UHGV virus genome: UHGV-0196552
DNA from: a virus
Reading direction: 5' to 3' (one strand)
DNA length: 13,292 nucleotides
The notes below the pieces were generated by a model. It saw only the letters and a list, made by a program, of their open reading frames with translations, searched no databases and was not told the origin of the DNA. A program made the position numbers and the translations under genes. The first letter of the stretch is position 1, and each line of letters begins with the position of its first letter. Below are positions 2,473-7,626 of this stretch, in pieces.

Positions 2473-2704
2473 TTTCTTAACCCGTAGAATGGTTCATGGA
2501 TGAAAAATTTTACCATTTGCAGTTATGTTTCGTAAATGATCATCGTAGAGTGAAAATTTAACTTAAGTGGATGTTGAGACGTCATTAGATGGCGTTGTAC
2601 TGGTTGAGATCACGATTTCTATGAAAAAAACGGGGCTGGTTGCTTTGAACTGGTTAACATAGTGGGATTATAAGCACCGAAGAAGTACTTCAGCAGGAGT
2701 AGAT

Positions 2705-3433
2705 ATGAACAGAAAGCAATTCATCCAGTCACACGGAGCTACTTGCAGTAACTGGACGTGGAGTTGGTCATTTGTTAACCATGAAAAGAAGATGGTCATC
2801 TTTGGGTCATGGGATGTTGAGAGTGAACAAGAGCGGTCTGTAATACTCCGGGAGAAATGGGAATACAACTCAAACAACAAAAAACAACCGGGATACACCC
2901 AGGCACTGGAACACATCCGTTTAGCCCATGAAGGCTACGAACTTTACACCTTCAATATGGTTTTCGCAGAACACCCTGAGAATCCTGAAATTGCAGTAAT
3001 CAAGGATTTTGAGCGTAAATTAAACAAGCGATATCTTCGTAAAGAAGGTGTTGTTTGGTATGCAGACTTCTTACCTAATCCATTCCCTGATGAAATTCCT
3101 TCAGGAGAGAGTTTTGTTGAAGGTGCAAAGACTCAAGTAACAGTGAACTACTACGAACGCGATCCAAAGGCCAGACAAGCCTGCATCCAGCATCACGGTA
3201 CTGCCTGTAAATGCTGTGGCTTCGATTTTGAGAAGGTCTATGGTACACATGGCCGTGGGTTCATTCATGTACATCACATCAAGCCGCTTCATACGATTGG
3301 GGAAAACTATGTGGTCAATCCCGTAACAGATATGATCCCATTATGTCCAAACTGCCATGCAATGGTACATCACGGAAGCGAAGTACTTCCAATTGCAGAT
3401 TTGAAAAAGAAAATGACATTCTGGAGCGAGTAA
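2705..3433 (+). CDS. McrA-like HNH nuclease: about 170-aa N-terminal domain of unknown function plus C-terminal HNH (beta-beta-alpha-Me) motif
   Basis: Strong RBS AGGAG 5 nt before ATG 2705. C-terminus contains CKCCGF...GFIHVHHIKPL...LCPNCHAMVHH, the classic Cys-pair, HH, Cys-x2-Cys-His HNH signature as in McrA-type enzymes. N-terminal domain is Trp-rich (WTWSWSF, GSWD). Confidence 0.75.
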   Translation: MNRKQFIQSHGATCSNWTWSWSFVNHEKKMVIFGSWDVESEQERSVILREKWEYNSNNKKQPGYTQALEHIRLAHEGYELYTFNMVFAEHPENPEIAVIKDFERKLNKRYLRKEGVVWYADFLPNPFPDEIPSGESFVEGAKTQVTVNYYERDPKARQACIQHHGTACKCCGFDFEKVYGTHGRGFIHVHHIKPLHTIGENYVVNPVTDMIPLCPNCHAMVHHGSEVLPIADLKKKMTFWSE

Positions 3434-4225
3434 ATGGATTTATCACAATTGAGCAACGTCGAATTGATGCAACTGAATCAGTTGACGCTTGATGAGTTAG
3501 AACGACGAGAGGTTATCAGAACCAGAAACAATCCTATCAGTGAGTACACTGAATGGCTGGTTGCGGATAAGATGCAAATGGTACTGGCTGCACCTAGTAC
3601 TAAAGGGTATGACGCTACAACAACTGACGATCGAAAAATTCAGATTAAGTCTCGTAAGAATAATTTAAAAAACCAATCATTAATTCTTGGGATTATCAGA
3701 AATTATGATCTGAACCAATTCGATGAACTCATTGCCGTAATATATAACCATGATTTCTCAATTCGTTATGCCATATCCATACCACATGAATTAGTGAAGG
3801 AATATGGTTTTTATAATGAGCATCAAAATGGTTACACTTTAAGAATAAGCAATTTATTACTTAACGATCCACGTGTAACAGATATCATTGAATTTATTGA
3901 CCCAGACACTGAACGTTCAAAGGAAGAGATCACGGTGAAGCCAGATTCAAACACTATCCGGGATGTACAGACAATAGGAATGCAGACATTTGTTGAGTAC
4001 TATCAGTATGTTGAAAGTGGTATGAACACAACTGATCTTGTTGAAAAGATGGTAACTGACCATCCAGAATGGAAGGAAAGTACTGCAAGAACTAAGGCAT
4101 CTTCAATGCGAAGAGTATTCAAGAATGGCGACAACATTGAAGTACTAAAAATCATCTATAAGTCGAATCACCCAGCAATAACGCATGAGATTAAGAGTAA
4201 ACTGATGACGCGTTGGGATAAATGA
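3434..4225 (+). CDS. hypothetical protein translationally coupled to the HNH nuclease; N-terminal region has a possible Mrr-like PD-(D/E)xK signature
   Basis: ATG 3434 directly follows the TAA of the upstream gene (3431-3433), with GGAG 8 nt upstream. SEYTEW...KGYD...DDRKIQIKS fits E...D...(Q/E)xK spacing of restriction-endonuclease-fold proteins such as Mrr. This is a weak, motif-only assignment. Confidence 0.5.
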   Translation: MDLSQLSNVELMQLNQLTLDELERREVIRTRNNPISEYTEWLVADKMQMVLAAPSTKGYDATTTDDRKIQIKSRKNNLKNQSLILGIIRNYDLNQFDELIAVIYNHDFSIRYAISIPHELVKEYGFYNEHQNGYTLRISNLLLNDPRVTDIIEFIDPDTERSKEEITVKPDSNTIRDVQTIGMQTFVEYYQYVESGMNTTDLVEKMVTDHPEWKESTARTKASSMRRVFKNGDNIEVLKIIYKSNHPAITHEIKSKLMTRWDK

Positions 4226-4271
4226 ACAAAGTTTGGGTTATATTTTTGACGCAAAAAGATATAATTGTAGT

Positions 4272-4815: not shown

Positions 4816-5325
4816 ATGAAACTCGAACATTGGGCAATTCCGATCACTTCATTGGACGGTATGTTACTCGGCGTAGAGCTGGAAACCCGTGTACTGATAA
4901 ACGGTTGCCAGGTACTGATGGGGGCAGGAAAAGAAAGTGAATATATCCGTCACGTGGTCTATCAGAACCAGTTAAGAATGATTCAGGGTAAAGCCGCATG
5001 GTTCAAAGAAAAGGGGCTGTTGTGCGTGCTCAGTACTGGCACAGGTACACGCTATGAAGATCTACCATTCATACGGTACATGGCTGCTGAACCACTGCTA
5101 ACGGACGGTTACGACTTAGTTCGACTAAATAGACGGTTCACTGAAGAACACATAGAGCGGCTGATCTTCCCGGTACTCATCAATAACATCATGCAGTACT
5201 GCGACAAGGTGATCGTACAAGTCAGCAGCAATCGAAATCACAGGATTTTACGAGAGTCGGGGGTATGGGCAGTACAGGGAGAGTACAGGCCAATCCGCTT
5301 TGAACAATGCGAACAACTTCTATAG
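4816..5325 (+). CDS. compact, degenerate EAL-like domain protein (probably catalytically inactive c-di-GMP phosphodiesterase homologue)
   Basis: Four EAL-like motifs in the right order: PITSLDGMLLGVELETR (compare YQPIVDL.TG.IVGAEALLRW), LSTGTGTRY (compare DDFGTGYSS, with DD lost), DLVRLNRRF (compare LKIDRSF), VQVSSN...VQGEYRP (compare EGVE...QGY.FSRP, with EGVE lost). Only 169 aa, shorter than a canonical EAL domain. Confidence 0.45.
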   Translation: MKLEHWAIPITSLDGMLLGVELETRVLINGCQVLMGAGKESEYIRHVVYQNQLRMIQGKAAWFKEKGLLCVLSTGTGTRYEDLPFIRYMAAEPLLTDGYDLVRLNRRFTEEHIERLIFPVLINNIMQYCDKVIVQVSSNRNHRILRESGVWAVQGEYRPIRFEQCEQLL

Positions 5326-5335
5326 GGATATAACA

Positions 5336-5608
5336 ATGAAAATACTAATCGTCATGTTGGTAGTACTGCTCACAGGCTGCGGCAGCGTACATCACTCATT
5401 CATGGATAAAGCCTTTGTCGGCAACGTTGATAACAAGGCTACAATAGTACTGTTCGACGCTGGCACACGAAACGGGGTGAAGTACTACCGGCCTCAGTTC
5501 CAGAGTGATTGTGGCCGCACCTACAATCCGATTTACCAGGTGGACAATGGCAGTACTACATGCCATATACGAGAGGAAAGAATTAAAAAAATGCATCAAT
5601 ATAGATAA
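5336..5608 (+). CDS. small lipoprotein (signal peptide with lipobox LTGC); candidate moron or superinfection-exclusion lipoprotein
   Basis: The track ORF 5300-5608 begins with a TTG shown as M. The internal ATG at 5336 has an AGGGA RBS about 7 nt upstream and begins MKILIVMLVVLLTGC, a textbook lipoprotein signal. Mature part has several Cys. Confidence 0.6.
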   Translation: MKILIVMLVVLLTGCGSVHHSFMDKAFVGNVDNKATIVLFDAGTRNGVKYYRPQFQSDCGRTYNPIYQVDNGSTTCHIREERIKKMHQYR

Positions 5609-5688
5609 TAAACAAAAATCAAAGAGATAGAATTATTAAATTATTAAGTGTATGTGGCATGATGAAAAATTAAATAATATATAATACC

Positions 5689-5728: not shown

Positions 5729-6883
5729 TCAACGTAGCATGGCTAATGTTCTGGAAATTCTTATTATATCCTTCTCAATATCATCTAAAACAGGAGTTGA
5801 GTTTCTGCTTCGCTCTGCAATTTCTTGCAAAATATATCTATTTAAATGGTTGTTAACATTTTTAGGGTCAAGGTTTTCTGGTGTGGGAACAACACAGCAC
5901 TGCCAATAAAAAATCTCATCTTCAAAATGATTTAGCCATTTAGAATGATATTTTTCTTTCGATTTTTTCTTGTTAAGTACATAAATGCTAGCCGCAGCTA
6001 CCACATCCGCAATTTGTATACCATGCGTGACTTTAGAATCAGAAAGAATCATTGGCTCAGATAGCTTAAATGTGATCGGGATTTTTTTATCATGAAAAGT
6101 CTCGAACACAATCTCATCATTGCCTATCATCTCATTGAATGAGTCCTGATGAGTAATTAATGGTTTTGAGCTGTCGCATATAGCTCTCAATGTACCAAAC
6201 TTACTACTCATATCGCACAGGAGATTATAAAGAGAAGTCGTTGTCAAATCTAATAACCACTTATCAATCCCAGTACCCTCAAGGCCTTCATATTCTTCTT
6301 CAATTATAGAGATGTTATTCTTGGCGAAATCATGAATGTCCATCATAATTTCAGAATTTTTAGAACCAACAACTGGTTCGATAAAACTATTAACCAATAT
6401 TTTACCTCGTGAAAAATCTTCAAATCGCGAATGTAATAGTTCTGAATATTCATCCTTAGCTATTAAAGAAAAATACATTATATTTGAGATGAATAGGTGA
6501 AATTTAAGGTTGTAAAAAATTGAGCTTTTAGCTGCTAATACTGGCTCAAAAATATATTCGAAGAATTTTCCTGAGAGGGCATATTTTTTTTCGTTTACAA
6601 CCACACGCATACGACCACGGAAATGATTAAGTATTTCATCTACGGCTGGTTGAAATCTCTTGCTATTTACGAGAGTGCTACCTTTTAGCTCTTCGGCTGC
6701 GATCGAGTACTTGTTTATTATATAATCAACAAACTGTTTACTTTCCTCATCATCAGTCACGACTGCTGCGTAACTAAAAAAAGGCTGATCTTTTGAAAGT
6801 AAGTTATTACCAGTGAATCCTGATTCATCGAAATATACATTCTTTACCAATTTGGTCATTCCTTTATGAGCTACAATGTGCAT
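5729..6883 (-). CDS. DUF3800-family protein
   Basis: N-terminal VYFDESGFTG and C-terminal HGIQIADVVAAA match the DES and Q-x-x-D motifs I recall for DUF3800. 384 aa, very AT-rich. The start could be the ATG at 6883 or an internal ATG 8 codons downstream; neither has a clean RBS. Confidence 0.65.
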   Translation of the reverse strand: MHIVAHKGMTKLVKNVYFDESGFTGNNLLSKDQPFFSYAAVVTDDEESKQFVDYIINKYSIAAEELKGSTLVNSKRFQPAVDEILNHFRGRMRVVVNEKKYALSGKFFEYIFEPVLAAKSSIFYNLKFHLFISNIMYFSLIAKDEYSELLHSRFEDFSRGKILVNSFIEPVVGSKNSEIMMDIHDFAKNNISIIEEEYEGLEGTGIDKWLLDLTTTSLYNLLCDMSSKFGTLRAICDSSKPLITHQDSFNEMIGNDEIVFETFHDKKIPITFKLSEPMILSDSKVTHGIQIADVVAAASIYVLNKKKSKEKYHSKWLNHFEDEIFYWQCCVVPTPENLDPKNVNNHLNRYILQEIAERSRNSTPVLDDIEKDIIRISRTLAMLR

Positions 6884-7062: not shown

Positions 7063-7626
7063 TTAGCAAAGTACAACACCTATTTCATTTAACGCACAAT
7101 CGCAATGACGGTTTGTCGGACATTCGCATAATTTGAATACTGCATAAGATCCTTTAAGGGTATCGGTTACATACTTGTCCATTTCTTCAACTACAGATGA
7201 TGAGCAATATAAATGAAAACCAACACAGAAAGAATTTCGCATCGGATACTTACATTCTTGTATAGAGTTGAGTTTCAAATGGTCTGCTTGCAATCCTCTT
7301 TTTAAGGCAGATGAACGCTTAGTACATTTCAGCTCAATAAAGATATAGTCTTCAAAAAGGGTATCTTTTTCTCTCATTATTATATCGATTTTTGAGAGCT
7401 TGCTTGCAGGGAAATTATTAGGGTCAAGAAAAGCTGTAACTTCACGTTTAACTTCATATTTTCTTTTTTTGTTAAGGAAGTGCTCAAATTCAATTTGTAG
7501 CCATTTTTCCCAATCATTAGTTTCATTACTGACGAAGGAATACAGACGCCTCTTTATATCTTCATTCTTTAGGAAGCTATTCAGTAACTTTACCAGCAAA
7601 GAAAAATCATTGTTGCGGTCTGACAT
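7063..7626 (-). CDS. PD-(D/E)xK-like nuclease with C-terminal Cys cluster
   Basis: WLQIEFEHF (acidic motif I), KIDIIM (Asp) and IFIELKC (E-x-K) match restriction-endonuclease-fold spacing. C-terminal CECPTNRHCDC (C-x-C-x5-C-x-C) could bind a metal or Fe-S cluster, reminiscent of Cas4/RecB-family nucleases. ATG at 7626, 38 bp from the divergent terS start. Confidence 0.55.
   Translation of the reverse strand: MSDRNNDFSLLVKLLNSFLKNEDIKRRLYSFVSNETNDWEKWLQIEFEHFLNKKRKYEVKREVTAFLDPNNFPASKLSKIDIIMREKDTLFEDYIFIELKCTKRSSALKRGLQADHLKLNSIQECKYPMRNSFCVGFHLYCSSSVVEEMDKYVTDTLKGSYAVFKLCECPTNRHCDCALNEIGVVLC

Follow-up and report, generated by a model that had tools for sequence, protein, structure and literature searches.

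Two abutting nuclease genes in an enterobacterial prophage form a candidate modification-dependent restriction cassette with an Eco15I homologue

INTRODUCTION

The BisI family, with members such as BisI, NhoI, Eco15I and EcoBLMcrX/EcoBLI, comprises orphan Type IIM restriction enzymes which cut within GCNGC only when two to four of the cytosines are present as 5-methylcytosine (5mC) or 5-hydroxymethylcytosine (5hmC); they have PD-QXK ('Mrr-like') active sites and read the methyl groups in the intact duplex without base flipping (PMC4926085, PMC8281217, PMC11347163). The PD-QXK layout consists of a Glu in helix alpha-1, the Asp of an xD motif and Q-x-K, and the methyl pocket of the family is made up of an (H/R)(V/I/T/M) pair and an Arg from the other subunit (PMC11347163). 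Enzymes of this family, including Eco15I and EcoBLMcrX, are active alone in vitro (PMC4926085, PMC5487053) and are homodimers (PMC11347163); EcoBLMcrX restricts T4gt in vivo (PMC4926085, PMC5487053). A C-terminal domain of Eco15I (Eco15I_Ctd) showed no binding to modified target DNA, and activity does not depend on it (PMC11347163); according to Xu et al. it resembles some putative HNH proteins (PMC4926085). A second group of modification-dependent enzymes joins an N-terminal sensor to an HNH nuclease, as in EcoKMcrA of prophage e14 (NEco-HNH, Type IV), the SRA-HNH enzymes TagI, ScoA3IV and TbiR51I, and the EVE-HNH enzymes VcaM4I and TspA15I. Here we describe two abutting open reading frames (ORFs) of the virus genome UHGV-0196552, a stretch of 13,292 nucleotides hereafter called the window. 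ORF1 (2705-3433) and ORF2 (3434-4225), both on the + strand, resemble these two groups of enzymes, respectively. A first-pass annotation, made by a model from the sequence without database searches, had proposed that they form an orphan modification-dependent restriction-like module of a McrA-like HNH protein and a second nuclease fold. This proposal is supported by the homology of ORF2 and the architecture of ORF1; the ORF positions, the motifs, the direct contact of stop and start codon and two copies of a palindrome were all present as it had claimed.

RESULTS AND DISCUSSION

ORF2 is a full-length homologue of Eco15I

The 263 amino acids (aa) encoded by ORF2 correspond over their full length to Eco15I, a Type IIM modification-dependent restriction endonuclease of the BisI family. 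The catalytic and recognition domain, a PD-QXK nuclease (aa 1-155, 3434-3898), gave profile matches to the crystallised N-terminal domain of Eco15I (Eco15I_Ntd, PDB 8q5m; E 2.2e-34), to NhoI (8q5n; E 1.8e-19) and to the PADLOC family mREase_II (PDLC03212, Type II methyl-directed restriction enzymes; E 1e-62), and further matches were found with Pfam DUF6998 and phrog_24787. In a BLASTP comparison, the full-length Eco15I sequence, taken from the supplement of PMC11347163, was 33% identical to ORF2 over 242 aa (E 5e-44), with the C-terminal domain included (to residue 244). What had been described in the first reading as a weak Mrr-like E...D...QxK signature is a real one: E40 (3551-3553), D60 (3611-3613) and Q70-I71-K72 (Q70 3641-3643, K72 3647-3649) align with the verified active-site residues of Eco15I and NhoI, and the catalytic set is intact. 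The pocket Arg (R89, 3698-3700) and the His of the pair H130-Q131 (3821-3826) are conserved as well; residue roles were taken from PMC11347163 and from an alignment of the clade. The Eco15I counterparts of E40, D60, Q70, K72 and R89 are essential by mutagenesis (PMC11347163).

Taken together, ORF2 has in common with Eco15I both domains, the E, xD and QIK catalytic residues and the pocket Arg, and, as with the long BisI homologues (PMC4926085), its gene is an orphan carried on a mobile element in Enterobacteriaceae. ORF2 differs in that identity amounts to only 31-46%, in that Val is replaced by Gln as the second residue of the H130-Q131 pair, and in that the gene ahead of it encodes an HNH protein and not an XRE/helix-turn-helix (HTH) regulator. 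By homology, ORF2 would be a homodimeric PD-QXK nuclease that reads GCNGC-like sites in the intact duplex without flipping bases, and it would cut inside the site only if several cytosines bear 5-methyl or 5-hydroxymethyl groups. The family has already been characterised biochemically and structurally (PMC4926085, PMC8281217, PMC11347163); ORF2 represents neither a novel fold nor a novel system.

The extra C-terminal domain of the Eco15I type (~110 aa) is present in ORF2 as an all-helical accessory domain (aa ~170-263, 3941-4222) homologous to Eco15I_Ctd; the BLASTP alignment spans it and the clade alignment concurs. A word-indexed homologue search with this domain returned two close matches only, and an exhaustive HMMER search was needed to find 40 relatives. 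Many of these are stand-alone proteins of ~100 aa, the others being fusions to HNH_2, DUF559, PLD-like (MIT_C), HSDR_N_2 and DUF4145. The AlphaFold2 (AF2) model is a six-helix bundle with a predicted local distance difference test score (pLDDT) of 85, for which a fold search gave weak helical or HTH-like matches only. The domain has the look of an accessory module that moves among defence nucleases, and its recurrence in fusions to four other nuclease types narrows the hypotheses on its role.

ORF1 combines an HNH nuclease with a Trp-rich, putative sensor domain

For ORF1 (242 aa) we predict a Type IV-like modification-dependent HNH endonuclease built from a sensor domain, a linker and an HNH domain. 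The protein ends in FIHVHHIKPL...LCPNCHAMVHH, and Pfam HNH is matched at aa 168-223 (E 4.5e-6); together with the conserved Trp residues described below, this bears out the canonical HNH motif behind a Trp-rich domain reported in the first reading. The HNH (beta-beta-alpha-Me) nuclease domain (3146-3430) carries H188-V-H190-H191, N216, H218 and H222 and the Zn-binding residues C168, C171, C214 and C217. Its nearest HNH domains are those of EcoKMcrA and ScoMcrA, and PADLOC calls it mREase_IV (Type IV). In the AF2 model (pLDDT 82.8) an N-terminal domain (aa 1-125, 2705-3079) is followed by a linker predicted to be disordered (aa 130-147, 3092-3145; pLDDT <50) and by the HNH domain (aa 148-242). 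Both halves are strongly conserved in the family: the NW.WSWSF motif, the HNH residues and the zinc residues are invariant, and W17, W19, W21, W36, W52 and W118 of the N-terminal part are invariant or nearly so among 43 homologues. The family is large, with 4,358 matches from several phyla, many of them full length and at least 50% identical; the hosts include Enterobacterales, Pseudomonas, Verrucomicrobia, Omnitrophica, Desulfamplus and Ignavibacteria.

The N-terminal 125 residues of ORF1 and 42 homologues had no match in Pfam, NCBIfam, PHROGs or PADLOC; specifically, none of the Pfam families SRA, EVE, ASCH, PUA and DUF3427 was found in these proteins at E values up to 1, and a PDB profile search matched HNH regions only. 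The predicted model hints at a fold of the SRA/PUA type. Outside the HNH domain, its top structural matches were all SRA sensors: SUVH5 SRA (score 5.9), the SBD-SRA part of ScoMcrA (5.7), UHRF1 SRA (4.7), PvuRts1I and AbaSI (4.6 each), LpnPI (4.4) and SauUSI (3.9). TagI, a two-domain SRA-HNH enzyme, scored 6.6. Since these scores are moderate and the model is itself a prediction, we infer, as a supported reading and not as a demonstration, that the domain is an SRA-like modified-base sensor.

ORF1 and EcoKMcrA have in common the C-terminal HNH beta-beta-alpha-Me domain with a Cys4 zinc site, but the N-terminal domain of ORF1 is unrelated to NEco by sequence and gave no fold match to it, and ORF1 is shorter (242 aa versus about 277 aa). 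ORF1 is McrA-like in its nuclease only and lies outside the NEco-HNH family. With the SRA-HNH and EVE-HNH enzymes it has the order of an N-terminal sensor (putative in ORF1) followed by HNH in common; unlike theirs, its sensor has no sequence similarity to Pfam SRA, EVE, ASCH or DUF3427, is smaller (about 125 aa) and has an invariant NWTWSWSF motif of its own. Of the analogy to McrA and SRA/EVE-HNH enzymes drawn in the first reading, the sensor-then-HNH layout holds and an SRA-like fold is tentatively predicted, whereas NEco is not matched. The ORF1 family is uncharacterised in the literature that we searched and has a conventional architecture. In our model, the SRA-like domain would bind a modified base and, across the flexible linker, the McrA-type HNH domain would cut nearby.

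Coupling of the two genes and their genomic context

There is no gap between the two genes: the ATG of ORF2 (3434-3436) directly follows the TAA of ORF1 (3431-3433). A Shine-Dalgarno-like AGGAG (2695-2699), read directly from the sequence, lies 5 nt ahead of the ORF1 ATG, and a GGAG (3423-3426) within the coupling junction (3423-3436) precedes ORF2, each at ribosome-binding distance from its start. Orthologous junctions are as tight, with a 2-nt gap in one related element (L001) and a 4-nt overlap in another (L003; L numbers denote the sequences compared with the window). In our reading, ORF1 and ORF2 are co-transcribed and probably also coupled in translation. In agreement with the first reading, no methyltransferase domain was found in any of the scanned ORFs of the window, the last open frame of which encodes a head protein.

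The window derives from an enterobacterial prophage and shares 97% identity, across 60% of its length, with an Escherichia coli prophage which is integrated by a serine recombinase and adjoins yeaG. Genes for the small and large terminase subunits, the portal and head proteins follow downstream of the cassette, and the cassette itself occupies the accessory region between the early genes and the terminase genes. This is the usual placement of prophage accessory ('moron') defence cassettes, and there is nothing distinctive in the arrangement. Without the rest of the prophage, the cassette (2695-4250) recurs with 84% identity in ~10 E. coli chromosomes, there in an integrase island that adjoins ffs and lies beside a Type III R subunit. 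The two exact proteins are found on 41 and 85 contigs across Enterobacteriaceae. At NCBI they are named 'HNH endonuclease' and 'DUF6998 domain-containing protein' or hypothetical, and have consecutive accessions in many Enterobacteriaceae genomes. Searches of isolated phage genomes, for near relatives and at the protein level, matched neither the cassette DNA nor ORF2, and matched ORF1 through its HNH domain only.

Adjacent pairs are present in the window, in L030, L031 and L002/L032, in L001 with its 2-nt gap, in L003, where the overlapping ORF2 is short and lacks the C-terminal domain, and in L026, where the gap measures 186 bp and ORF1 is only 45% identical. A 191-aa gene splits the pair in Pantoea (L023/L036), and in Kluyvera (L014) the order is reversed with an antisense gene in between. 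Genes of the ORF2 clade stand alone in L027, L033 (89% identical), L034 and L035, and 0 of 19 more distant phage-borne BisI-like genes have an ORF1 neighbour. Likewise, the Eco15I gene has no ORF1 partner, its neighbours being an HTH gene and IS1. In turn, 157 plasmids (mostly Klebsiella IncFII) carry a solitary ORF1 homologue, as do a Pseudomonas putida island that also has Gabija-like and GmrSD genes and a contig from Verrucomicrobia. Because each gene is also found solo, split or in reversed order, the linkage of ORF1 and ORF2 is frequent yet facultative.

A dead relative of ORF2 was found in a related phage (L009) at the same position upstream of the terminase genes. This protein, P0146 (L009 4001-4810), is 41% identical to ORF2 and has no HNH neighbour; neither the catalytic residues (E40L, D60N, K72L) nor those of the pocket are preserved in it. 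The next gene (4872-5678) encodes a 268-aa protein with a C-terminal GIY-YIG domain (a weak Pfam match, E 1.2e-3). In related phages this slot is taken by other cargo, e.g. DarT/Macro genes or an X-GIY-YIG gene.

How the cassette may work

With moderate confidence, we read the locus as encoding two modification-dependent restriction endonucleases, each autonomous and without a methyltransferase, that are stacked in the accessory region of a prophage; we prefer two autonomous nucleases because of the occurrence of each gene alone, split from the other or in reversed order. As a two-gene defence cassette upstream of the terminase genes of an enterobacterial prophage, the pair would enable the lysogen to destroy incoming phage or plasmid DNA with foreign cytosine (or other) modifications, while unmodified or Dcm-only DNA of the host and the prophage would be left intact. 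Several observations weigh against this explanation. The tight coupling (0 nt, 2 nt and a 4-nt overlap) favours some functional interplay of the two proteins, and the pair is kept even where ORF1 is only 45% identical (L026). A scan of the surroundings of the cassette gave no convincing sigma-70 promoter or terminator; a TTGAAC-18 nt-TATAAG arrangement at 2645-2674, which failed the promoter scan, is by eye a possible weak promoter. Finally, the methyl-contact pair H130-Q131 departs from the published (H/R)(V/I/T/M), with Gln throughout the ORF2 clade. As this pocket residue is Gln and not Val, Ile, Thr or Met, the site or modification preference of ORF2 may differ from that of Eco15I.

The main alternative is a cooperative or obligate two-nuclease system, in which the HNH and BisI-like proteins act in a complex or in sequence, one of them, for example, recognising modified sites and nicking and the other completing or extending cleavage, and in which the pair is the functional unit. 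Stop and start codons that abut or overlap in three independent contexts, a linkage that persists across seven or more different mobile-element contexts, even with an ORF1 of 45% identity, and the consecutive protein accessions in many Enterobacteriaceae genomes all argue for such a system, but either family is common without the other, and gene order and spacing are variable. The Eco15I-type C-terminal domain, to which no role is assigned, might provide a link, as it is also fused to other nucleases including HNH_2; however, the short ORF2 without this domain still follows the HNH gene in L003, so the domain is not a required link. The position of the dead ORF2 relative (E40L, D60N, K72L) next to a GIY-YIG protein would also be in keeping with cooperation. 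On the other hand, BisI-family homodimers are active alone (PMC11347163, PMC4926085), and ORF1 has its own (putative) sensor and nuclease. We consider a cooperative system unlikely, and the frequent occurrence of each gene without the other likewise weakens the 'novel two-component nuclease' suggested in the first reading. A catalytically dead relative, and the insertion sequence (IS) elements and group II intron that fill the closest E. coli prophage, could alternatively indicate that the cassette is in decay and a mere passenger of the prophage. Both ORFs are intact, though, with all catalytic residues conserved, the exact proteins recur on 41 and 85 Enterobacteriaceae contigs, and a different element has retained the cassette at 84% nucleotide identity, which makes non-functional cargo a highly improbable explanation.

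It is also conceivable, if rather doubtful, that only ORF2 is a restriction enzyme and that ORF1 is an HNH protein with another job, its N-terminal domain binding something besides a modified base. Such a protein could be sequence-specific or nick DNA, act as a free-standing homing or selfish nuclease, serve as an effector of abortive infection, or take part in the processing of phage DNA. The N-terminal domain has no sequence match to known sensor families, and by inference the tolerance of the gene in normally Dcm+ E. coli speaks against plain 5mC recognition; yet the top non-HNH structural matches are all SRA sensors, and the nearest HNH domains belong to Type IV enzymes. HNH genes near terminase genes can serve packaging (HK97 gp74; PMC4926085), but we rejected this role for ORF1, which is 242 aa long and lies ~4.2 kb and six genes ahead of the gene for the small terminase subunit, genes on the opposite strand being located in between, and whose homologues reside on plasmids and in chromosomal defence islands without phage context. 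A homing endonuclease was rejected as well: no Rfam intron and no intein was found, and Pfam scans revealed no NUMOD/IENR-type module. Thus neither of the two findings that the first-pass annotation had named as refuting it was made, i.e. a homing-endonuclease module in an intron or intein context for ORF1, or a second protein without a nuclease fold, since ORF2 has one.

Weighing these explanations, we think it most likely that two autonomous restriction endonucleases form a poorly annotated but ordinary defence cassette and no new kind of system. A farther-reaching proposal, to which we give a small chance, is that the Trp-rich domain of ORF1, with more than 4,300 homologues in Proteobacteria, Verrucomicrobia, Ignavibacteria and other groups, stands for a large family of DNA-modification sensors not described so far, SRA-like and reading something other than plain 5mC, which together with a BisI-like partner forms a linked two-nuclease unit in Enterobacteriaceae. 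If true, non-5mC reading by the ORF1 sensor would explain its tolerance in Dcm+ E. coli, and the two-nuclease unit would cover complementary modifications or cooperate on the same substrate. The picture of how modification-dependent restriction systems work is unchanged by our analysis. Its use lies elsewhere: the assignment of DUF6998 here to the BisI/Eco15I family of restriction enzymes gives a testable function to a cassette that is widespread in enterobacterial prophages and islands, the ORF2 clade with its Gln pocket could yield a BisI-type enzyme with altered specificity, useful for epigenetic mapping, and the large ORF1 family with its uncharacterised sensor domain is a reasonable target for screens of Type IV enzymes.

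The palindrome reflects a window-wide excess of AGTACT

The palindrome GAAGTACTTC occurs upstream of ORF1 (2682-2691) and again within it (3380-3389), in the codons for the conserved residues S-E-V-L. We considered it as a specific control element of the two genes and rejected an operon-specific operator on several counts. The window contains 16 perfect 10-bp palindromes, compared with 16.0 +/- 3.8 in Markov-1 simulations, and a repeated palindrome arises in 25% of these simulations. Neither copy is well kept in the orthologous cassettes: the upstream copy is missing from L001, L002 and L003, and the internal copy reads AAAGTACTTT in L002, GAAGTACTTA in L003 and GAAACACTGA in L001, being degenerate in L001 and L003. 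The motif is accounted for by an excess of AGTACT, which forms the core of both copies.

AGTACT is by far the most over-represented hexamer of the window (49 sites versus 3.7 expected; z 23.5), and the palindrome copies account for two of these 49 sites. Over the whole window (13.3 kb), 17, 7 and 13 sites fall in the three codon frames and 12 in the 2.7 kb of non-coding sequence; the flank preference is weak, towards CAGTACTG. A 5- to 12-fold excess was found in every low-G+C enterobacterial mobile element with close relatives of the cassette (L001-L011, L014-L016, L023-L027 and L030-L036), the rich parts being 2900-14400 of L001 and the prophage parts of L002, L009, L014, L023-L027 and L030-L036. 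Adjacent host DNA, IS elements and the group II intron show no such excess, and neither do the plasmids that carry homologues of ORF1 or Eco15I, nor a 50-kb phage stretch whose G+C content is comparable. Only 1 of 6 sites is common to the cassettes of the window and L001, i.e. individual sites turn over, and this turnover points to a pressure that acts on AGTACT density and not on particular positions. Low G+C content was rejected as the cause, as the 50-kb phage stretch (~40% G+C) has 0.1 sites per kb and the host flanks have almost none. An origin in very-short-patch repair (Vsr-type) is not supported, since AGTATT/AATACT is not depleted (17 versus 12.8 expected). The related E. coli prophage carries at its end a gene annotated as 'methyltransferase'; it has no Pfam match, so that it could not be tied to AGTACT. 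We found no published account of this over-representation, which may be of greater interest than the cassette.

Other genes of the window and its relatives

Pfam and PADLOC searches of the neighbouring ORFs of the window revealed no further defence genes, with the exception of DUF3800. This gene (5729-6883, - strand; 384 aa) lies between the cassette and the terminase genes, together with a second opposite-strand gene (7063-7626, - strand) for an unannotated Cys-rich protein of 187 aa. Both are accessory cargo and neither has a PADLOC match; a further E. coli chromosome carries the DUF3800 gene alone, 88% identical. Near the start of the window, an ORF of 166 aa (119-619, + strand) contains a ...HLDKD...N... 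motif and has no Pfam match at E 0.01. As the gene at the equivalent position of L009 has NUMOD4/HNH_3 matches, the product is likely a free-standing, homing-like endonuclease of the HNH_3 type.

The closest sequenced relative of the window, the prophage of E. coli AREA_C483 (L002), is disrupted at 11350-14830 and 19634-23732. The interruptions are IS3-family, IS5 and ISSen4 elements and a group II intron. Immediately behind the ORF2 homologue, which is annotated with 286 aa there, lies an IS3-family element, and another splits the terminase gene. The isolated-phage sequence with the nearest relative of the window terminase (35% identity) is Escherichia phage DCP80 (L029; PQ671644.1, 1-23000). 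This record starts with the terminase gene in question, of the lambda gpA type, and also has two rIIA genes; it is classed as a T4-like Gaprivervirus and looks like a chimeric assembly.

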